Shown here piece by piece: positions 372-43,743 of a DNA stretch of 54,166 nucleotides. Source of the stretch: Psammoneis japonica. Taxonomy: Eukaryota. The position numbers were made by a program, and so were the translations under genes. The notes below the pieces were generated by a model. The model was not told the origin of the DNA, did no database searches, and was given only the letters and a program-made list of their open reading frames with translations. The stretch spans positions 1 through 54,166 of the forward strand of contig QPGO01000327.1 of assembly GCA_008632985.1 (NCBI GenBank). The letters are read 5' to 3'. Every line of letters starts with the position of its first letter. Position 1 is the first letter of the stretch.

Positions 372-2097
372 TTAGACACTGTCTTCTCCGCTGATACTCT
401 CTTCTTCGATTTCCCTCAACTTATGTTCAGTCATGGTCTGCGAGACAGGAATCCCATGTTCCATTTGGCTATTTTGCTCTTTGAGGGAAACCCACCTATC
501 AATGTCAATGTCATCGCCATCGAGTAGGAGCAACTCCCATCCCTCGAAGAAGCGAGGCAAAAAGAATAGACGAGCGGGGATGCACAAGAAGGTCATCAAG
601 GGGAAAGCGATTGCGATGGGCTTGTAGTTCTGAACAAAGAACACGAGACCAAAGAAGCAGAACTCAAGACAAGTGTACATGTGAACTCTCTTCTTCTTCA
701 TGTACTTGTTGAAGAAAGGCGTCTCGGGGTACTTGCTGGGTTGCATAAAGAAGAGGAGGAAGCGTCCCCACAATTCAATACCTGCGAGGCTTGAAAGCCC
801 CATAAACAGAAACACTCCGTACAATACGGGAAGAGGCAGGAGCTTGAGTGCATCCAATGCAAAGATTGAACATAGAACCAGCACGTGCGAGAAGAAGTGC
901 GTCAATCTTGTCTCCTGAACGTTAAGGATCTCGCCATCACGGTCCTTCACGGAAAGGGCATTGACATGGACCATACAAGGGACGGTTGTGGCGACAAGAG
1001 GCGGGAGGCCAAGAGCAGCGTTTACAAGGTTGAAGAAACCAGAAAGAATCAAGTCGTAATTGTACGCTTCACCGTGTCTGAAGGAGCAAATACAGCAGGA
1101 GAAATAAAGGCGTGAGCGCTTCTGTTCAGATTCCAAAGTGGTATCCTGATTTCCCGAAATCCTTGTACTTACTGGAGCTTGTTGCTCGGGTGAGCGATAA
1201 GATGCCAAGTGATACCATTGTCGAGGTATACCAAAAGGAAAGCGAGAACAGCTGGACCGGCCGCCATAATGGGAACCCATGCCTTGCCGTTAAGGTTGCC
1301 GTAATCGACGAGCCAGTCACGAGTTCCCCATGACTCGTCTTGTTCAGGGCAGTCTTCGGGAAACGCCGTCGTACAAGAAGAGTCGCAGCACTGAAAGGTG
1401 GGTTCAATCGCGTCAGGAACCTTGAGAGTCTGGAGCGTTACTTCATCGTTCCAAATCCTGCTAATGCCGGTCCAAATAAGGACGGACAGGATGACCGCAA
1501 AGTCCGCAATGAATGTACGACAAAAGTCGTTGGGGAGAAAGCTCGAAAAGCGGAAACCACGGAAGAAAAAGATTGTAAACGTGGTACAAGACCGAGGATA
1601 AGACTTAGGAAGGCGACGGACAGATAGTTGTAGTTAGGGTCATCTGCGTTGTCTTCGTGGTGAGGATGATCTTTCTCGAAGTATCGCAACATTCCAGAGG
1701 TGGAGAATGGGTCACCGAGGGCATCCATGACAAAAATACTGACAATCAAGCCGGCAAACACTTCATCGGTGAAGCGAGTCGCCAACCGGACGTAGCGAGT
1801 TAAGTCAAAGAAGCCTGAAATGACGGTGTAGATGAAGACCCAGACAAATACCCACGCGTTGAAGGTTAGGAAAGGGACGCCAACATTGTCAGCGATATCA
1901 AAAAGGACGGTGGTCATAATGGAGAGAGGACCAGTGGACCCAATGATGCACATGGGCTGTCCTCCAATAAGGGCAAAGGTCGATCCGACCCAGCCAGTTG
2001 CAATAAGGGTTTCGATGGCACCCATGTATCCATTGGTGATATTGGTGTACACAGCACCAAAGGTCAAAGTTGGGACAATGACGGAGATGAACATGAG
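372..2097 (-). CDS. SLC4: SLC4-family bicarbonate/borate transporter, 5' part lost in the gap; intron 1078-1172; apparent 1-nt deletion at about 1587
   Basis: Contains family-typical segments PTLTFGAVY, LIGGQPMCIIGSTGPL, TRFTDEVFAGLIVSIF, VQETRLT, PLPVLYGVFLFMGLSSL and IAFPLMTFLCIPAR. Restoring one G at about 1587 gives LGLGTTFTIFFFRG, which reads on to HPSNKLQ. A GTAAGT...CTTCAG intron then joins to HGEAYNYDL. Confidence 0.9.
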
Positions 2098-16161: not shown

Positions 16162-16712
16162 ATAAATGAAACAGCGATAAGACATCTCAGTACCAACCTA
16201 GAAATTGTTCAGGTTAGTAGAGAGTGTGCATTGAGTATACAGCTTTCTCCCCAAACTGTACTGTGTATTCAGTGTGTCAAACACACGAAAACAATAGCGG
16301 CGATGTAGAGCAATCCTAATTCTGTGCAATACCCCTCCCAGAAAAGGATGAAACGATTAGATTAGTCTGTAATGCAATTCTGAAGCCGTCCAAACTCCAC
16401 GAAAATCTCCGCAACCATGCATCTGCTGTTAGTTATTAGTGGTTAGCTCTACTCTACTAGCTCTAGTAGCTTCTAGCCCTACTACTACTTAGTTGTACCG
16501 TAGTAGGCCCTAGTAGTCCAAAGTTTGAGCGGGATCTCCGGGTGCCCGCATCTGGTTGAGATTCGGATCGTGACGTCATCAGCGCGATCTTTCCGCGATC
16601 GAAAAAATTCTGCGAAAAATGACCGGACCATGACGACGCACAAAGTCTTCTGAATGGGCTTCGGTTCCGACTTTTTGTACAGTGTGCTATCAACGACAAT
16701 CGCTACAGCACC

Positions 16713-18293
16713 ATGGTTCCAAACCCGACGCATCGACTCGTACCCTCAGGTTCTGATCCATACGCGTATCCGTATTTTCATTCGAACGGAACAGCACCTC
16801 TTCTTTTTGAACTAGTAGACCGGTTTGTTGCAGACACAAAAGGCCAAAGACTTCGTCTACTCAAGCGCATTCAATCTAGATGCATTGTGAAGCCTGCAGA
16901 AATTTCCTGGAGGGACAGTTGCGGCGAAACCGCTTTGCATCGTTTGTGCCAGAAAACGTCCAATTTGCAAGACGAAGATGCCGTGCACATGCTTTTGCAC
17001 GTGGCTCGAGCCTTTGTTGTTGCATGCCCACAAGCCATTACGTTTCAAAACAATTGGAAAGAGACGCCCTTGCATCTCTTCGCGACTCATTGTTTCATGA
17101 CGGTTGCCTGTTGTAATGACGGTCAGCAACAAGAACGCCTTCTCGGACACGTGGTGGACCTTGTTCGGTTGCTTCTTAACGAACACGTTGCAGCTTGCCC
17201 AAACTACATGGGGTCGTTGCCGCTCCATACAGCGTGTGTGCTTGCGGAAGCTGTCAAAAAGAAAAATGGCCAAGTCGTGAACCATAATGATGACTGGGCC
17301 GTTGTGCTCCATACGGCAATCATAAGGCACCTTGTGAAACTGAATCCAGACGCGTTGTACGTTGCCGATCGCTCGGGAATGACACCCCTGCATCACGCTG
17401 CTTTCTCCGAGACCTGCAGTCCTCAGGTAGTTCAGGTGTTGCTGGACCAGATATTGTCACAAAATACAAACGATCGGCAAATGAATATAGAATCAAGAAC
17501 AGAGTTATGCAAAGGTGCTTTGGCGAGACTTAGGAGGCTCTATTTTGAATCTGGCGGCCCCGGGAAAACTCCTATCGATTACATTGAACGCGCTTTGAGA
17601 AGCAGCCTGGAAGGTATTCCAAGCGAAAGGATGCAACGGTGCATACGCAACTTTGATGCTTTGTGGACGAAAACTGTTCTCTTGATCCAAACCGGTGGCA
17701 CGCTGATGCTATCTACCAAACCTGCCCAACAAGAACCGAAACTTGTTCATTCTAGCATGATGCTGAGCGCTTCACTTGCAGTCGTTTTGGCGACAGTTTC
17801 ACTGAATCAGCCTGAGTTGCTTCAAGCAGACGGAATTACCAACAAGACACCCTTGATCATGGCACTGTTGAACACACCCGTGGTTGACTCTGAAGCCATC
17901 CGACGTGACCTCGAATATGATCACTTGAAGAGGCCATTTGATGCTTGTTATTGCAACGGGGATTGGATCCAAAGACCCCACATGGTTGATTCGATTTCTC
18001 AACGCATTTTGTTGAGTCATTTGATTGCTACCGAGCCTCGAGCTGCTCGCGTGGTGGATGGCAACGGTCGATTGCCTTTGCATTACGCCGCCGAAAATGG
18101 TGTCGGTTGGCAGAATGGCTTGGAAATACTGTTTGAAGCAGAGCCACGCGCTGTTGCTGCTCGAGATCCGGTGACACACCTATACCCGTTTTGTTTGGCG
18201 GCAACCGCAAGCAGAAACGAACCGGACGCTTCTCAAGTGTCCGACATTTATGAGTTGCTCAGAGTTGACCCTTGTGTGTTGAAGTTTTCATGA
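16713..18293 (+). CDS. Ankyrin-repeat protein
   Basis: 526-aa ORF with repeated GETALHRL, KETPLHLF, GSLPLHTA, GMTPLHHA and GRLPLHYA motifs, and a C-terminal RDPVTHLYPFCLAA...IYELLRVDP segment. Confidence 0.85.
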   Translation: MVPNPTHRLVPSGSDPYAYPYFHSNGTAPLLFELVDRFVADTKGQRLRLLKRIQSRCIVKPAEISWRDSCGETALHRLCQKTSNLQDEDAVHMLLHVARAFVVACPQAITFQNNWKETPLHLFATHCFMTVACCNDGQQQERLLGHVVDLVRLLLNEHVAACPNYMGSLPLHTACVLAEAVKKKNGQVVNHNDDWAVVLHTAIIRHLVKLNPDALYVADRSGMTPLHHAAFSETCSPQVVQVLLDQILSQNTNDRQMNIESRTELCKGALARLRRLYFESGGPGKTPIDYIERALRSSLEGIPSERMQRCIRNFDALWTKTVLLIQTGGTLMLSTKPAQQEPKLVHSSMMLSASLAVVLATVSLNQPELLQADGITNKTPLIMALLNTPVVDSEAIRRDLEYDHLKRPFDACYCNGDWIQRPHMVDSISQRILLSHLIATEPRAARVVDGNGRLPLHYAAENGVGWQNGLEILFEAEPRAVAARDPVTHLYPFCLAATASRNEPDASQVSDIYELLRVDPCVLKFS

Positions 18294-18581
18294 GCTTCAA
18301 ACCTGTGGGCTCCTTGACCATGCCACGGATCTGTTCCGAGTAGCAAAGCATTGTTTTGCAAAGGTCCTGTAGTGCTTCTAACTGCTGCCATACTCTTGCT
18401 TGCTTCCAGGTGGTATCAGGTTATGACGATATGTTCATGCGCGTGCTCGCTCTTTTTGAGTCGTGGGGTGACGGGACTGAGATGATGCGTGCACGTCTCA
18501 GCCGCCGAGCACAACTCGAGGAAAGCCACAGCTTGCGAGGCTCACAAAAAAACACATTGTCGTTGCAACCAAAGAAGAACA

Positions 18582-19968
18582 ATGAACACCTACAAAATAA
18601 AGCAACGTGAGACCAACAAGCAGATCGAGCTGCTGCGATTGAAGAATCAATTAAAAGAACTGGAATCAGCCGTCGGAAAGGGAACATCGATGATTTCGCT
18701 ACTCATCCCGCCCGGCAACGCCCAGCTCATTCGTGCCACCAAGTTGCTCAATGACGAGTTGCGAGTGGCCACCAACATCAAATCTCGGGTTTAACAGGCA
18801 ATCTGTCCAGAGTGCAATCAAGTCGGCTCAGCAGCGACTCAAGCTCTACAACAACAGGTGCCCCGCAAATGGCCTAGTCGTCTTTTGTGGTCTTGCCGAG
18901 GTACAAGACAGCCGAAAGGAAAGGATGATAACGGTTGACCTTGAGCCACCTCTACCAGTCAAATTTTTTCTTTATCGCTGTGACAGTCGTTTCCATACAG
19001 ATCAACTAACTTCATTGTGCGTGGAGGAAGGTGAAGAGCCATACGGTTTTATTATCGTGGATGGTAACGGGGCGCTATTTGGTTTGCTACAAGGGTCGAG
19101 AAGAAGAGTTTTGCACAAGTTTTCAGTTGATCTTCCCAACAAGACTCGTCGCGGAGGTCAATCGGCTTTGCGTTTTGATCGGATCCGTGTAGAAAAGCGA
19201 AACATGTACCTACGCAAGGTCGCCGAGTTGGCCATGAATTCTTTTCTTTCCCACGGTGACAAGCCCAATGTGGCCGGTCTTGTCCTTGCTGGAAAAGCAG
19301 GCTGTAAAGACGACCTTGTCCAGAGTAGCCACTTTAAGCGTCTCCGCGCACATGTTGTGGCTTGTTTGGACGTGTCGTTTGGAGGAGAACGTGGATTTGA
19401 CCAGGCAATCGACAAAAGTGCTGAAACGATCGGATGCGTCACGCTGGTTCGCGAAAAGCGTCTGTTGGAGAACTTTTTTGAACACGTCGAGCGCGATACA
19501 GGAAAGTATTGTTACTCCATAAAGGAAACCTTGCATGCTTTAGAAATGGGAGCCGTGAAAGATTTGATTGTATGGGATGGTCTCGATGCGACCCGCTGCG
19601 AGATGCAAAACAAAGAAACAGGGGAGAATGTGGTTTCCTTTTTCTCCAAGGAGCAGGAGGAAACAAACATCTTCGCTTCATTTATAGTTACCAAGACGGA
19701 ACCACTCCTGGATTGGATTGTCGACCATTACAGCAGTTTCGGTTGCAACATGGAGTTCGTGTCAGACAGAAGCGGAGTCGGAAAACAGTTTGCCGCAGGA
19801 TTCGGCGGAATTGGTGGCATGATGAGGTGGCGAGTAGATTTTGAGTCATTGAACACTGGTAGCGATAAGGAGGAGTCCGAATCTGAACGAGAGAGCTCAT
19901 GCGATACGGAGGAGAAGGGCAAGGATGACTACCGGTATGATTTTGAGGACGGAGATTTCGCGTTGTAA
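18582..19968 (+). CDS. ERF1: Divergent eukaryotic peptide chain release factor 1, split by a +1 frameshift with an in-frame TAA at 18792-18794
   Basis: First frame (70 aa) holds GTSMISL and TNIKSRV, then a stop. The +1 frame continues NRQSVQSAIKSAQQRLKLY, NGLVVFCG, YRCDSRF, GGQSALRF, ALEMGAV and QFAAGFGGIGGMMRW, collinear with eRF1. Confidence 0.92.
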
Positions 19969-20414
19969 ATCCGATAATATTGTAGGGTGAACTCCTAAAG
20001 AAGATCGATGAAAGTGCAGTCTAGCGTATTTGCCATAACAACTCAACTGTTCTATCTTCCGCTCCCACAAGTAAATGAGAAAGGAGATCAGAACAATTGA
20101 TCCTTACCGCTAACTGTTGTACCTACAAGAAGCGAGAGCAAAAATCATGAGCCAAAGCGCGAAAAACAACCCGTTTTCGACATTTTTTGTAATTCGTTGA
20201 AATATTCGAACTAATTTTTAAAAATATTGCTAAAATTAGATTTTTTAGAATCTCGCTCTCGCGCCATCCTCGCAATCCGCCAATCGCCAACATCGGTATG
20301 AACACCCAACACATCACCGCAGATAATAGCCTTCTGCTTTTGTTAGGACTACTCGATCTCAAAGTTTGAGTCTCCTTTTCTGTCATTGCCGTGACTTGAA
20401 GTCTATTGAACACA

Positions 20415-21359
20415 ATGGAACGCCGTCCCAAACGCAAGGCTGCCGAAGCGGCATTGACGGCGATGAAACAAGTACGAATGCTCGAGGACGCGCCCGACGA
20501 GGACGAATATGATTCACAGAATCTTCTCGAGAACGCTGTGGCCGCTTCCACCCCGTGCTTTGTATTCGAAACGGCTACACTCCCCCATGAGCTTGGATTG
20601 CTTGTGTTTGATTTTCTACCAAAACGGGAGCTTGTCCATGGCGCGTCTATGGTGTGCAATTCTTGGCTCGCGGCCTCGCGGAATCCGAGTCTGTGGCTTG
20701 CACTGGAAGCAGATATCTGGAGAAAAACAAGCGTTGAACGTCGTTTCTCCATGAAGAGTTTTATTACCTTTCTCCATCGTCCACAATTTGCGTTGCTCCA
20801 AAAGTTGGTGCCTCCGGATCTCTACAGAACCCTGCTTCGCAACGTTTTTGATCGTATTGCCGCGGCAATCGGTGAGCATTTGGAAGAGTTTGATCTCTCG
20901 GGATCGACGTCGATTTATTCTTTAGCGCTAGTTCCTTTTGACGAAGAACTCCTTCGAATCCCTACTCTGTTTCCAAAGCTCAAAAAGGTGTCGATCTGTT
21001 TGAGAAGTGTGCGTGAAGAGACCCTGGTGCAGTTCATTCAAGTCATGGGGGATCGCCTCGAGAGTCTCGAAATTGTGGTGAAGGACAGTGAAGCTCATTT
21101 CTGCACGGACGCAACTCTCAAGGCGCTAGCTCAAAACTGCCCCAACTTGGAGTGTGTTCGATACAAGTACCCACGAAATGCAGACTTTACACTGGGAAGC
21201 TCCTTTACGTTTCAAGCCATGGTTGGTGTACTTGAGAGTTGCCAGAAGTTACGGATCTTTGAAGTTTGCACACGTACGGATGTTGCGGCAAACGTGTTTG
21301 AATTTCTACGCCCTCGCAACTTTCTCAATCTCGACCGAGTGACTCTCTCGCATTACTAA
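20415..21359 (+). CDS. F-box protein with leucine-rich repeats
   Basis: F-box-like LPHELGLLVFDFLPKRELVHGASMVCNSW...PSLW; LRR-like TDATLKALAQNCPNLE and LESCQKLRIF; basic N-terminus RRPKRK. Confidence 0.8.
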   Translation: MERRPKRKAAEAALTAMKQVRMLEDAPDEDEYDSQNLLENAVAASTPCFVFETATLPHELGLLVFDFLPKRELVHGASMVCNSWLAASRNPSLWLALEADIWRKTSVERRFSMKSFITFLHRPQFALLQKLVPPDLYRTLLRNVFDRIAAAIGEHLEEFDLSGSTSIYSLALVPFDEELLRIPTLFPKLKKVSICLRSVREETLVQFIQVMGDRLESLEIVVKDSEAHFCTDATLKALAQNCPNLECVRYKYPRNADFTLGSSFTFQAMVGVLESCQKLRIFEVCTRTDVAANVFEFLRPRNFLNLDRVTLSHY

Positions 21360-34296: not shown

Positions 34297-35980
34297 GGCG
34301 AAGCGGATTGAAAACTTGGGTTGAACTGCAATCGACTACGTGTATTTGTTTCAGAAATCTTTTGGATAACGTCCCTCAATGAGGGAGAGCACCATAACTT
34401 GTAAATAGTCGGCGGTTCCCTTTCACTTTGTCTTCACTGCACAAATGTACCTTAGTCTGTAGTTCTCCTTCACTTCACGCGTGTCCTCAGTCTGATTCTT
34501 CGATCGATCTCTTTGCATACCACGAAAAGCAAGCTTTTGGCGCGTTCATCGTGAGCCATGCGATACAAGTTTCAGTCTCAATGCGCGCTTCCAGCAAAGT
34601 CCAGCCATTCGCTCGTCAAGGCGGATACGGCGACATTGGTTCAATCAATAGTTCCTCAGAGAGTTCTCTACAAGTCCCGGCGTAGTCGCACTCTGGCGAC
34701 AGCTCATGGTTAAGACAGCAATAGCCAATCGCGGAAAGCTCACAAATTTTGCGTCTTGTTTCCTTCATCAACCCCAATAAAGTCCATTTTGCTCGTTCCA
34801 CGATCGTAGGCATGAATCACTTCAACGGTATCCGTCATTGCAAGTTTGCGTCCGATTTCTCTTGAAAGGAATCTTCCATCTTGCTGGAATCATCATTGGT
34901 AGCATTGAGTAAAATAGTGCGACCTGTATTATGGTGAGACGCGGAATTTGAAGTCTTACGTGTCCTTCAAAGGGTTCCTGTGCGTCATTGTCGTTGACAA
35001 AGTTCTTGAATGCTTGTGATTGTTGTTGCGTATCTCGAGTATAGTATTACTTCGAAGAAGAGATGATTGGTATTCTACCCTCGCTAGATTGACAAAGGCT
35101 TCAATCAATCTCTGATTTCTCAAGGATATTTTCAAAGGCTGTCTTCTTACTCAAAAAAAGGATTCCTGATGGGATGAAAAGAATCTTGACGTGGGTTCTC
35201 GAGGGAATGTAAAAGTGAAACAGGGACGGGTTGCGTTCTTGACCCGTCAATGACTTTTTCTCATGACAAGATGACAAGTCGAAATGCCCGATTTGGCAAT
35301 CATGTCACATGCCAATCTGAATGTTTGCGGAATGCTGCATTATTATTTGTTGTTGCCGTCGCGACCACTTTGTACTTTTGTGGGATCAACAAAGCAACGG
35401 TGATATGCTTCAAAAAGCGACTCCTTTCCAGACTTAACCGGTGCAAATATGTTGCCGTGTTTTGGCTACGATTGTAGTTCAGCCTTTTCTTTACGACTTT
35501 GAAGAAAAATGATTTATAGCAGTGCCCGCGGCTAGCTGGATCATGATGTTGTGGCCAGAGAGAATGCTTCATGAAGAACCGCCAACAAATCCATACTCGT
35601 AAATGCAACTCCAGCGCCCCAGATCCAAAAGAGAAGCCTCTCTATTCTCCTCATTGCAATGTTATGAAATGGAAAGCAGCAACGTCAGGGTTGTACTGTA
35701 ATGCCTCTGCATCTCGTCGCTGTCATCGTTGTTCGTTCTGAGTTCAGTGCCGTGCGTCTCCTCAACTCCTCAACTCTTTTTTTGTTCCGGCGCTCGTGCT
35801 GTCCACCCCAACGATTGAGCGCGCGCGATAGCGCGCGCGTCATGAGGGCGAAGAAAAGAGGGGATGGGCGACGACGACGGCAACAAACTGCTTTTACCGA
35901 CGCCTTCTTAGACACACTCGGTTAACCTCTACATAGCAACGGAAAAAAAGAAAGAAGTGCTTGACGCGACGTGTATAAAG

Positions 35981-38900
35981 ATGAGAAGCGATAGTACCAA
36001 CAGCAACAACAGCAACAATAATGATCTCCACGCTGGCTTTGCGGGTTTCAAGTGGGAGGTTCATAAGTTTGGAGGGACAAGCGTTGCCTCGTCGGAATGT
36101 TTTGTGACTGTCGCCGGAATTATCGAAGAACATTTGGGACTAAGCAGCAACAACAATGGTGATCCTACTACATACAGTGATCTCAACTTGGCTGTAGTCG
36201 TCTCAGCCATGGGAGGAAAGCCAAAGGTCACCGACTTGCTGTTATCAACAGTGTCAGCAGCCGCAAGGCGTGATTCTGAAAACGTAAAAGAAGCAATGGA
36301 TCAAATCACGACAAAGCATCAGACGTGTATTGATGAGCTATTTCCTGATGACCAGGACGAACGCAAGAGGCTTCAGGACGCTATTCAATCTGATATGGGC
36401 GATATTGGAGATATCTTGAAAACAGTGTCGGTCATGAAGTGGCAAGCTACTCGGATTTCGGAGCTTGTTTCCGGTTACGGTGAATTGTGGTCATCGCAAA
36501 TTCTGGCAGCCTTGCTTAGACAACGAGCCAAGGCCCGATCAGACATGCAAGGAGTTAATGAAGATCCCTACAAACATCATGAGTTTTGTTTCTTGGACGC
36601 TCGGCGGATCATTATTATTGACGAAGAAGCCATTCAGAACGGACAGGTCTGCTGGGATATGTCGAAAGAGTGCATGGAAGAAGTTCACAGAAAGGAGGTT
36701 GCTCGTCTCGCGAATCAGTTTGGCAGTGAGGACGAGTATGTCTTGCACTATGTTGTTACTGGATACGTTGCATCGAACACCGATGGTGTTGCAACGACGC
36801 TACAGCGGTACGTTTATTCGTCTTGTCTCCAAGTTGTCTGGCTCTAGTCATATTTCTTGTTCTTCGATACTCATGCGCCGTCTTCTCACTTTTTCTATTC
36901 CTACAACTCCTTCAAAACATAAGAGATGGTTCTGACTATTCCGCTGCAATCATGGGTCGCTTGTTGCAATCCAACAAGATTACAATTTGGACCGATGTAA
37001 ATGGCGTCATGTCCGCTGATCCTCGCCGAGTATCCCAAGCATATGTCATACCTGAAGTGTCCTACAATGAAGCAATGGAGCTTGCTTACTTTGGTGCAAA
37101 AGTGATTCATCCAAAAACAATGCAACCGGCAATCTCCTCGCAACCGCGGCAAATCCCCATTTATATCCGAAACACGTTTTGCAGCAGTGACCCCGGCACT
37201 CGTATATTCACGTCTAGTACCACTCACACGGACCGTGACAAGTGTGTTTGTGGCTTTTCCTCTGTTGATCACATGGCGCTCATCAATGTCGAAGGTTCGG
37301 GATTGATTGGAGTCCCCGGTGTTGCGCGACGAATGTTTGCAACCCTGGAGAGCTTGGGTGTCAACATTGTCTTGATTTCCCAGGCTTCCTCTGAGCATTC
37401 TATTACCTTCGCCACCAATGAACAACAGGCGGAATTAGCCAAGACGGCAATTGAGGAAGAATTTCGCAAGGAGCTCGTGGCAGTACGTGGCTAAAATGCT
37501 TGATTAACTCAACAAGAAACGAATGACTCGAAAGCCTTTTCTCACTCAATTTCTCTTTTGCTTCTTTTTATATTGCAGAATCGAATCACAAGTGTTGACG
37601 TTCAGTCACCGTGTTCCATTATCGCTGCTGTAGGTGATGGCATGAGTCACACCTCTGGCGTATCTGGCCGCTTCTTTAGTGCGTTGGGCGATGCAAAAAT
37701 CAACGTGATTGCTATTTCTCAAGGGTGTTCGGAGAGAAATATTTCCGCTGTTGTCATGACAAACGAATCAACGCGTGCACTCCGAGCTGTCCATGCGGCG
37801 TTTCGATTGTCTCAGACGGTGGTGCGCGTGGGTGTTGTTGGTATGAATGATTTGGGTATATCTTTGTTGAAGCTTCTGGAGACACAGCGCGACAAACTGA
37901 GAAGCGCTTTTGATGTTGACTTGGAAGTCTGCGCTATTGTTGCAGAAGGCAAGAGTAAGGATTTGGTTGTTTTGAAGAATGATGGAGACGGCAATTCTGG
38001 CTCATTAACATATGGGGCATTCAAGAAAGTCACGCGCGATTCCGTGAGTTCGGATGAACCTGGCGAAACTGAGCAGGTTGATAAGGCGGAGGAAATGGCA
38101 ACTGTTGTAACTGGAGGATTGTCGTCCATGTTTAAGTGTCTTTTCAATGATGAGTGCCCTCACCACGTCGTTTTCGACTGCACTAACGACGAGCTTGTCA
38201 GCGACTTACATGCTGAATGGCTGAGGGAAGGAGTTCACGTGGTGACGGCAAACAACACGGGCTTATCTGGCTCGAGAGAACAACGTCTTTCCATTAGTGA
38301 AGCGGAAATAAAATACGGCAAGCTCTCGGCCCAGTATCTTCGTGAGGTCACGGTCGGTGGTGGGCTTCCTATTGTCAGCACCTTACGAAGCCTCTTGAAT
38401 TCGGGAGATAAGATTCGTCGTATCGACGGCATTTTGTCGGTCTCGCTTTCATACATTATGTTTCGAATATCACCTCCTCCTGAGATTTCTCGATGCAGCG
38501 AGTTCGACGAACTCTTTAGTCAAGGGGCATTTCGTGGAGACCTATCCACTTCGCCCGAGGCCCAGATTGGCCGCGCATGTCTGTTTAGCGAAGCGGTGAA
38601 GGAAGCGATATCTTTAGGGCTTATGGAAGAACACCCGGAGAAGGATCTCAGCAATGAGTACTCAGCTCGAGTGCTGATGGTTTTAGCAAAAGAACTAGGT
38701 CTCGACCAGTACCACGACACTCACCAGATTCAAGAATCTGCCGATCAATTTTTCGACGTCTCTCACAACGAGCTCTACACCGCTCAGCTCGACCAACGGA
38801 TCAAGGACCGCGTGGAAGATGCCGAGAGGCAAGGTTGCGTTCTTCGACACATTTCGAGCGTCGACGTCAAAGCAAAGTCCCTCAATATCAAGCTCGTTGC

Positions 38901-39295
38901 GGTTCCCAACAATCATGTACGCACTCTTCGTATCCTTGCTGTTCCTCCTCGTTTATGTTGAGTCTAACCCTTGATTCCTTTTCCCAGATATTTGCTGTAA
39001 CTCCTCCGAGTTGTGAATGCGTTAGATTCTTTACTCAGCGCCACAAACGTTACCCGTTGGTTATTCAGGTGAGCTCTTACATGTCTTTGTGACTTCTCTC
39101 ATCGTTGCCAAATTGTTCGAAGATTTCGCTGACATCACGTGTCCGTCATATTGTACCGTACAAAAGGGGCCTTCTGCTGGGGCCGATTCTACGGCAAGTG
39201 CTCTTCTTGCAGAGTTGTTGAACTTAATGAGGAGTAAGGTGGGACCCCGATCGGGAGCTTTGTCGCGAACTGCATCAAGCGCATACCTTAAGTGA
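35981..39295 (+). CDS. AK-HSDH: Bifunctional aspartate kinase-homoserine dehydrogenase; introns 36808-36923, 37483-37578, 38917-38987, 39069-39166
   Basis: VHKFGGTSV, VVVSAMGG, TTLQRDGSDYSA, IWTDVNGVMSADPR and AYFGAKVIHP; two ACT domains (ISQASSE, ISQGCSE); HVVTAN, EVTVGGGLPI and QGPSAGADSTAS. All four introns are GT-AG and frame-consistent. Confidence 0.95.
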
Positions 39296-41570: not shown

Positions 41571-41900
41571 GCCGTGCGGTTTTTAAAAATTGATCTGTTA
41601 ACGCAGGTCGATTGGCCAGTGTTGATTGGGCGTTGGTGCGCGGACGGACCTTTTCTTTCTCGCGTGCGTCAGGGATCATTGCAGAATGTGGTTCAGTCAT
41701 GGGTAAGACTCACCATGTAGAATGTCTACGACATGACACGACCACTTCTGTTTCCACGATTGAAACTTCCGTCGAAAAAGTCGCACCCAGAGAAAGGCGA
41801 GACGTCAACAACGGAGGGAAGTTTCAGGCGCCTCAATCTCGGCCCAGCACTTTCGTTATTGCACTCATCTCATTTTCTTCTTCTTCAAGCAGTTTGAAGC

Positions 41901-43743
41901 ATGGCGCCATTGCCCGAAACAAACCAAGACAATGGCGATGATAAGCCACCGGAAGACTTTTCCTCCATTCGTGTGCTGTCCAAGCCAGTTGAGCAACTCC
42001 ATCGAGCAGAAGATGAGGACTCGTCCGGATCTTGTTGGGTGGATCTAAAAAACTTTATACCTGGCGCACTTCCCCGAGTTACCACGATTGCAGTGACGAT
42101 TGGCATTGTGTGCGGTATCGTTGCCTTTATTTACTACTCCATGCTGTTCTTCTTACTGCGCTACCTATGGCATGATTTGCCTGAAATGCTTGTGGAAAAG
42201 TACAGTATTCCTGAATCATTTCATTGGTTATGGATTCCACTCGTGGGATTTACTTGTGCGGTCTGTGTAGGACTTTCGGTTCGTCTTTTAGGTGAACCGG
42301 GCGACTTGTCTTACACAGTCCAGTGCGTTCGTGACAAGGCTTTTATTGGAATGGATCACGTTATCCCGATGGTTGCGGCTAGTCAGTTTAGTATTTTGGG
42401 AGGAGGATCGTTGGGACCTGAAGCACCTCTTGTGGCCATTTGCGCGGCTTTTGGTGCATTCATTGGCCGAAATGTGTTTGGAACGGAACGCGTTGATCTA
42501 GTTAGGAAACACACCTTAATGGTAAGCTGTTCCTGGCTACGTACCTGTTCCTGATGTTTGTCCTCCTTCCATCTCGCATCACTCATCGTTCATCACCGTT
42601 GACCCCTGAAAGGGAATGGCTTGTGCTCTGGCTGCTTTTTTTGGAGTGCCACTTGGAGGATCACTCTTTGCACTCGAAATTAACAACCGTTTCGGCATCG
42701 AATATTACGAGCATACTATGCATGCCATCTTTAGTGGCACCGTATGTCTCGTTGTCTTTCGTGGGTTGGCCGGACTCGAAATAGGACCTGTATGGAAGCT
42801 CTCGGATACTATGCTAGGACCGTCCTCGCCATCCACGGTCGGAGTGGGTGCTCTCTTGGGACTTTGTGGAGCTGCCGTTGCTGCAATGTTTGTGTACTTT
42901 CACAAGTTTGTGATTAGCTTTTTTAGGAAGTGGAATCTCATGGATAATAAAAATGCTGTTCAGCGCGCTCTTGTTGGAGCCATTGGGGTTGTGTTGATTG
43001 GCGTGTTGGTGCCTCACACCCTGTTCTGGGGTGAATTGGAGATTCCAACTGTTGCGCTAGCCGCTCCAGCGAGCGAACTGCCCAACGTCTTTCCTACCGC
43101 AGGGCTGATTGGTTTTGAAATGAATTCCTTCTGGACTGCCATGATTGTTGGCGTTCTGAAAATGGTGGCAATTTCGTTTACAGTCGCAGGCGGCTATCGT
43201 GGGGGCTTTATCTTTCCTTTCTTTTTCGCGGGATCTGCCTTCGGAAAGGCACTCACATATGTGATACCCTCGCTTTCTCCAACCCTTGCAGCCCTTTGCT
43301 TTGCTGCTGGCATTAATGTCGCGATAACACGGACTGCACTTGCATCAACCCTAATTCTCTGTGGCCTGGCAGGAGAGATCAATGCCAACCCCCCCGTTCT
43401 TGCCGCGTCGCTGGTCTCTCTTTTTGCAACGGCATACATGGTGAGCATTGTCAATGATGCTTGTGAAATTTTATACTATGTCGTCAGCACCTTACATTTC
43501 TTTGAACCGCTTCCATTTACGCTTTTCAAGCCTTTTATCCGGTCGCAAGCTGGTCGAAACGACATTACAAGGAAAAGTCTCCAGCCAATTAAAGGGGGGC
43601 GTTGGATTCACGAACATTTCAGTAGCAGCCGCGAGTTTGCGAATTCAAGCAAACTTGCTTCAACCCCAGAACACGGTGATGTGGAAGCGACCGACCAATC
43701 TACGCCTCTTGTTGACTCAGAGAAAACGAGGTACACTTCATAG
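41901..43743 (+). CDS. CLC-family chloride channel/transporter; introns 42522-42612 and 43441-43530
   Basis: GGGSLGPEAPLV, AAFFGVPLGGSLFALE and GYRGGFIFP motifs, many TM helices, GT-AG introns. Confidence 0.9.

Follow-up and report, generated by a model that had tools for sequence, protein, structure and literature searches.

Introduction

That a release factor can control its own synthesis through a shifty stop codon is textbook knowledge for bacteria; for eRF1, the only such cases to date come from giant viruses. In the bacterial prfB gene, which encodes RF2, a short first reading frame ends at a stop codon that is read by the factor itself while most of the protein is encoded in the +1 frame; the shift site, CUU UGA C, combines a P-site NUU codon with the U of the stop and a following C, and termination competes there with shifting. 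The giant-virus eRF1 genes shift at CUU UAG C and CUU UAA C, and autoregulation is proposed by the authors who described them (Jeudy et al. 2012, PMC3521657; this and the other papers cited by PMC number are used here in extract). A third solution is that of the plant eRF1-1 gene, i.e. a cellular eukaryotic gene that is one of several eRF1 copies and that senses total eRF1 activity at its stop codon, where the sensor is a normal stop followed by a 3' UTR intron that operates through readthrough and NMD, and where the functional protein is produced by normal termination (PMC5397192). In their extracted sections, a 2016 review of frameshifting mentions the giant-virus case alone, and a 2017 plant paper ascribes three origins to release-factor self-control, in bacteria, in giant viruses and in plants. 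Cellular eukaryotes also provide +1 shifts at stop codons outside this gene family, e.g. antizyme (UCC UGA U), which is a feedback sensor, and Euplotes (AAA UAA/UAG), whose shifty stops occur genome-wide and are reported as non-regulatory (PMC10235951).

The gene analyzed here lies in a window of 54,166 nucleotides of Psammoneis japonica (contig QPGO01000327.1, assembly GCA_008632985.1), and it shares with prfB the short first frame, the body in the +1 frame and the NUU-U-C arrangement, and by inference the competition between termination and shifting. It differs in being of eRF1 type, in having GUU for CUU and UAA for UGA, in lacking a Shine-Dalgarno-like stimulator, in a first frame of 70 codons that ends inside the stop-codon-recognition domain, and in that the same stop would also be read by an uninterrupted canonical eRF1. 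With Mimivirus R726 and Megavirus mg280 it has in common an eRF1-type protein that requires a +1 shift at NUU UAR C; those genes, however, are viral, combine readthrough with frameshifting, use CUU and form a deep branch of their own (PMC3521657), whereas the diatom genes are cellular, require one recoding event, have GUU UAA C right after NIKSRV and branch with diatom eRF1. An assignment to the recoded release factors of R726/mg280 type was accordingly rejected on the tree position, the intron-bearing genes of the scaffold and the single interruption. Unlike in plant eRF1-1, the functional protein of the diatom paralogue would come from the recoding event, and antizyme and Euplotes differ from it in gene family, in the signal sensed (polyamines) and in the heptamer. 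Full-text literature searches, which covered few subscription journals, found a frameshifted eRF1 described neither for diatoms nor for any other cellular eukaryote; a shifty-stop eRF1 in a cellular eukaryote has thus seemingly not been described previously.

A split eRF1 gene in Psammoneis japonica

The eRF1 paralogue is an intron-less gene on the + strand that is split over two frames (Table 1) and whose G+C content matches that of the window (0.49). Positions 18774-18798 read AAC ATC AAA TCT CGG GTT TAA C AGG. Because the +1 frame is open only from 18694, the change of frame has to fall between this position and the stop, and colinearity with canonical eRF1 puts the predicted point of change at V70/N71. 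A single four-base step at the stop gives a product of 461 residues in which no residue is lost or gained at the site, and this is the only interruption across the 461 codons. A -2 shift in place of +1, which would add one Phe, fits the sequence as well; we nonetheless prefer +1 as the probable movement since it gives exact colinearity. The first Met of the second frame comes only at about residue 45.

Table 1. Coordinates of the split eRF1 gene and of its motifs (positions in the window; residues in the frame-corrected product)
Feature	Position	Strand	Description
ORF1 (frame 0)	18582..18791	+	70 codons from ATG 18582, ending ...VATNIKSRV; N-terminal part of eRF1 domain 1
GTS	18681-18689	+	residues 34-36
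Overlap zone, +1 frame already open	18694..18792	+	33 codons
NIKS	18774-18785	+	residues 65-68
Shift site GTT TAA C	18789..18795	+	last ORF1 sense codon, frame-0 stop and next C
Frame-0 stop TAA	18792..18794	+	T18792 is the base that would be skipped; reproduced in Logan contig X2 record 10
ORF2 (+1 frame)	18793..19968	+	391 codons, starting AAC AGG CAA (NRQSVQSAIK...); TAA at 19966-19968
Content of ORF2	within 18793..19968	+	rest of domain 1, domain 2, domain 3, acidic tail ending DFEDGDFAL
YRCDSRF (YxCxxxF)	18973-18993	+	residues 131-137
GGQ (domain 2)	19153-19161	+	residues 191-193
GFGGIGG (domain 3)	19798-19818	+	

Pfam divides the eRF1_1 domain between the two pieces, with profile positions 6-47 in the first and 53-123 in the second (E values of 3e-9 and 2e-5 over both pieces), and places eRF1_2 (3e-34) and then eRF1_3 (2e-28) in the second. 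The 461-residue product can be matched to a solved eRF1 structure (PDB 8ip8) with an E value of 5e-130 over residues 9-430, and the match runs unbroken across the junction. With 50% identity to canonical diatom eRF1, VAT instead of the canonical TAS before NIKS, and a conserved C-terminal part that includes the GFGGIGG..RW stretch and an acidic tail and that may bear on peptide release and eRF3 binding, the predicted product displays the three domains and the motifs by which a eukaryotic class-I release factor of eRF1 type is recognized. Since domain 1 is interrupted immediately behind its NIKS loop, neither piece is a folding unit.

A reading made beforehand from the sequence alone had proposed that NIKSRV runs into a TAA at 18792, that skipping one base restores NRQ, that the GTS, NIKS, YxCxxxF and GGQ motifs are intact and that some 461 codons carry no other lesion; re-reading the sequence confirmed the GTT TAA C site and the two frames to the base, all four motifs were located in the frame-corrected product, and a single interruption was seen. 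It had also named reads with two T's (GTTAAC) as an observation that would count against the site. The reads covering the stretch are Logan contigs of two runs (X1 and X2) from one sample, which may underlie the assembly and are thus not independent of it; these contigs of both runs keep the three T's, GTTAAC was not found in them, and no indel is listed at 18789-18795 in either. One X2 contig (record 10, 841 bases) spans 18220-19060 with 0 differences and 0 gaps. The same runs also contain diverged material, i.e. an X1 copy about 10% diverged (a 462-base piece over 18834-19295 with 46 differences from the window) and X1 and X2 contigs that differ from the window at many places over 18813-19522; these diverged contigs may represent a second haplotype or a homeologue of the paralogue.

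Relatives carrying the same break

Protein searches with each of the two pieces uncover a group of relatives in which the same interruption can be read. Among the proteins found with the second piece are canonical diatom eRF1s, which are about 457-466 residues long, share 48-53% identity and have an unbroken NIKSRVNR[LS]SVL, but its best matches (P0003, P0006 and P0008) are proteins of 401-406 residues that start in the +1 frame. Their N-termini, and those of further members, are of one kind: P0003 begins with the leader ..PTSNRVFNRQ (..PTSNRVFNRQSVQ), P0008 with ..PTSNHVFNRQ (..PTSNHVFNRQSVQ), P0334 with ..TSGRAFNRQ (..RQTSGRAFNRQSVQGAL), P0006 with MFNRQSVQ, P0130 with VFNRQ and its cluster mate P0336 with MFNRQ, and the window's own upstream bases give the same kind of leader, PPTSNLGFNRQ, when read in the +1 frame. 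Such leaders are the +1-frame reading of NI[KR]SRV followed by TAA and Y, whereby both GTT and TAA are forced; back-translation of the P0003, P0006 and P0008 leaders against NIKSRV yields ...TCN CGN GTT TAA Y. Three of these proteins (P0008, P0331 and P0334, the last assigned by its source to Pseudictyota dubia) are ORFs from culture transcriptomes with a +1-frame leader, and since the leader persists in these transcript ORFs, the mRNA keeps the shift. In a profile of the second piece, P0006, P0008, P0003, P0102 and P0130 score 637-702 bits, against at most 603 bits for canonical eRF1. Two long animal proteins with profile scores in the paralogue range, P0004 and P0005, were set aside as candidates: both have the canonical uninterrupted motif, and P0005 is placed with animal-type rows in both of the trees described below. 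As a separate observation, the P0334 leader implies NIRSRV in frame 0, i.e. Arg for the Lys of NIKS in one paralogue lineage.

The first piece recovers the complementary half. Seven proteins were found with the 70-residue ORF1, six of which (62-77 residues, 60-69% identity) end at ...KSRV. A profile search of ORF1 over 1.84 billion representatives gave 153 proteins for examination; 13 of them end at the motif by pattern, and two more ending in QIKSRV and NIKSRL bring the number to 15 of 153. Nine of these 15 short proteins score higher against the window's first piece than against canonical eRF1. The other six (P0256, P0315, P0309, P0236, P0263 and P0200) end in QIKSRV, NIKSRL, NIRSRV or NIKSRV and are no nearer to the paralogue than to canonical eRF1; judged by these ends, they may be further shifted lineages, cellular or viral, or cut gene calls.

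At the DNA level, metagenome contigs scanned with the pattern NRQSVQSAI...QQR provided six loci, four of which were discarded as uninterrupted eRF1 genes of other organisms that merely share NRQSVQ[ST]AI. The two remaining loci carry the break: L004 reads TCG CGG GTT TAA CCG ACA and L005, a complete gene of 63 + 392 codons, reads TCG CGT GTT TAA CAG ACA, where the window has TCT CGG GTT TAA CAG GCA. Many public calls of the L005-type paralogue (P0337-P0345, in the P0130 cluster) are 344-residue proteins that start from an internal Met, and the shift thus leads to systematic mis-annotation. More generally, a programmed shift would explain why these genes appear in public collections as truncated proteins of 344-407 residues alongside separate peptides of about 49-94 residues.

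Selection on the site and phylogeny of the paralogue

The site is known from three DNA sequences and is otherwise read back from five protein clusters, which together amount to seven lineages, P0130 being the L005 lineage. The heptamer GTTTAAC is identical in the window, L004 and L005, including the C after the stop (three of three DNAs), whereas the codons around it (Ser, Arg, Arg, Gln) differ among the genes, and beside the site the invariant third positions are limited to those of GTT and AAC. GTT accounts for only 0.24-0.28 of the Val codons in these genes, yet it is found at the site in all seven readable lineages. Synonymous sites in the three genes are saturated on both sides of the break (pS 0.68-0.83, against pN 0.22-0.35), and dN/dS, where computable, is 0.13-0.17. 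An invariant heptamer amid saturated synonymous sites points to selection for the site itself.

We computed a careful maximum-likelihood tree of the second-piece region with 38 rows, whose support values come from a bootstrap that had not settled (correlation 0.951). On it the seven shifted genes form one clade (100/100), which is sister to the clade of canonical diatom eRF1 (97/94) with a joint support of 98/98, and a quick tree without viral rows gives the same grouping. End branches measure 0.36-0.99 for the paralogues against 0.03-0.15 for the canonical copies. Since the shifted genes constitute a single clade that is sister to the canonical one, the break is as old as the diatom-specific duplicate itself and has persisted ever since.

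The sequence-only reading had described the gene as an eRF1 paralogue of a cellular eukaryote with a prfB-like shifty stop, and these three attributions hold on both trees. It had further held that orthologues with an uninterrupted frame would count against the site, as would relaxed selection and lack of expression, which would speak for a simple pseudogene. Every member of the paralogue clade with a readable site has the same break at the same codon and none is uninterrupted; selection is purifying on both sides, with no sign of relaxation in the dN/dS comparison; and transcripts of cultured diatoms contain the shifted form. Our results therefore show that the break is real, old, common to the whole paralogue clade, under selection and present in mRNA.

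Giant-virus eRF1 genes

Two scans of a viral collection yielded 2 and 24 eRF1 loci; from the larger set, L028 and L032 were omitted because their matches begin far inside the protein, which left 22 for examination. Only one of the 22 is interrupted. This locus, L026 (positions 1847-2888 of an uncultured giant-virus contig with a G+C content of 0.24), reads AAT ATT AAG TCG CGT GTT TAA C, i.e. it presents the stop after the codons of NIKSRV, with a first piece of 51 residues and a second piece of 295 residues that bears GGQ. Its second piece has 27% identity, and the tree places L026 at a great distance from the diatom clade, with a branch length of 8.6. L026 thus has in common with the diatom paralogue an identical heptamer directly after NIKSRV, but differs from it in its low identity, its G+C content of 0.24 and its long separate branch. 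The viral site apparently arose independently of the diatom site, and, as placed by these comparisons, the diatom gene is not viral. A one-base insertion into GTT AAC seems to have been fixed twice, once in diatoms and once in L026, and this recurrence of one heptamer at one codon, in diatoms and in a virus, is an example of convergent recoding.

Proposed mechanism

We consider it likely that the gene is a diatom-specific, fast-evolving eRF1 paralogue and that a programmed +1 frameshift at GUU UAA C is required to make its full-length product. A ribosome that reaches the end of ORF1 would have its P site occupied by Val-tRNA paired to GUU, while UAA, followed by C, would stand in the A site. 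Either eRF1/eRF3 would terminate there and release a 70-residue fragment, or the ribosome would move forward by one base and Asn-tRNA would read AAC, thereby joining NIKSRV to NRQ; the forward move could consist in a re-pairing of Val-tRNA on UUU or in the out-of-frame entry of the next tRNA. By analogy with prfB we infer a slip from GUU to UUU, its competition with termination and a negative-feedback loop. By our own reasoning, the slip from GUU to UUU would keep two of three positions and its first-position mismatch would make for poorer re-pairing than that from CUU to UUU in prfB. UAA-C is among the strongest frameshift-inducing tetranucleotides in yeast, according to the extract of Jeudy et al. 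2012 (PMC3521657).

No shared RNA structure was detected over 100 nt upstream and downstream of the site in the three genes (fold z-scores from -1.64 to +0.52), and no Rfam element flanks the site at E values up to 1 (0 hits). With neither a flanking structure nor a known RNA element found, the heptamer may act alone.

As the rate of termination at the site would depend on eRF1, the yield of full-length paralogue would fall as termination capacity rises. This would constitute a homeostat of RF2 type that senses total eRF1 activity, in which the canonical eRF1, uninterrupted in diatom proteins, would stay unbroken; given that UAA would also be read by that canonical eRF1, the feedback would act on total activity and not strictly on the paralogue's own product. 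We lean, with less confidence than for the shift itself, toward regarding the paralogue as a dedicated, feedback-controlled spare release factor in diatoms whose output rises as termination capacity falls. More speculatively, the early stop could make the mRNA a target of NMD, which also takes part in the plant eRF1-1 loop. If this mechanism is true, it would represent the first homeostat of RF2 type known from a cellular eukaryote and a further independent invention of release-factor self-control; a conserved case in a major algal group would mean that GUU UAA C serves eukaryotic ribosomes in living cells as a natural +1 signal, and termination capacity could be followed with the diatom site as a compact natural reporter.

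Alternative explanations

Several other explanations of the split gene have to be weighed against a programmed shift, and they differ in the evidence that decides on them. Since the window is a scaffold in draft state, interrupted by 802 N at 2098-2899, and the lesion lies in a short T run, one may ask whether TT was simply read as TTT during sequencing or assembly, or whether the gene is a recent pseudogene; this can practically be dismissed, because L004, L005 and five protein clusters share the break, at least nine short proteins nearest to the first piece end at the motif, and the Logan contigs of two runs agree, while a pseudogene is at odds with the lack of any other lesion in 461 codons, with purifying selection on both sides and with a break that is not private to one lineage. 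It is likewise very improbable that the frame is restored in RNA, by editing or by polymerase slippage on the T run, or that the two ORFs are expressed as two separate proteins. Three T's are a short run for polymerase slippage, and the assembled-transcript ORFs P0008, P0331 and P0334 keep the +1-frame leader, so that the bulk of the mRNA has the extra base. As to two proteins, the open second frame has no conserved start codon near the site (the first Met in the window being that at about residue 45), and the break lies within domain 1, directly after the NIKS loop, leaving two pieces neither of which is a folding unit.

An endogenised giant-virus eRF1 that brought its frameshift along might be suspected from the viral contig L026, with GTT TAA C at the same codon, and from ankyrin and F-box neighbours, which are of types common in giant viruses. 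We hold this origin to be highly unlikely: the paralogues group with canonical diatom eRF1 as its sister clade (98/98), apart from all 12 viral rows, the gene has the G+C content of the window (0.49) and shares its scaffold with genes that contain spliceosomal introns, and 21 of the 22 viral eRF1 loci examined are uninterrupted. A further explanation is a fixed, constitutive shift without any sensing role, in which GUU UAA C shifts well enough and reversion is rare or neutral. It would sit well with the fact that no stimulatory element or shared structure was found, with a site that is easy to create, inasmuch as one inserted T turns GTT AAC into GTT TAA C and such an insertion has also arisen at the same codon in the unrelated giant-virus L026, and with the Euplotes shift sites, which are reported to be neutral and non-regulatory (PMC10235951). 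The heptamer is nevertheless invariant while synonymous sites are saturated, and shifty stops turn up repeatedly in release-factor genes (RF2, giant-virus eRF1 and the diatom paralogue), a recurrence that is difficult to account for if the shift is unrelated to termination (PMC3521657; PMC5397192). A purely constitutive shift is therefore, in our estimation, unlikely, although it deserves more weight than the explanations above, and we retain the programmed shift, with a proposed feedback role, as the preferred reading.

Neighbourhood of the gene in the window

On the same strand the eRF1 paralogue is flanked by an ankyrin-repeat ORF (16623-18293, +) and an F-box ORF (20400-21359, +). A HCO3- transporter gene (PF00955; 375-3399, -) is distributed over three ORFs, and it contains the run of 802 N at 2098-2899, which is a scaffold gap inside this gene and which accounts for the low G+C of the corresponding bin and for frames that are seemingly open in all six readings. 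The three other frameshifts that the first inspection had ascribed to assembly errors in the window were not located; one apparent split of the HCO3- transporter, the junction near 1078-1172 (-), is an intron of the form GTAAGT...CAG and not a frameshift. Two further genes are divided into several ORFs, probably by introns: an aspartokinase-homoserine dehydrogenase gene in three ORFs (35912-38958, +) and a CLC chloride channel gene in two (41898-43740, +).
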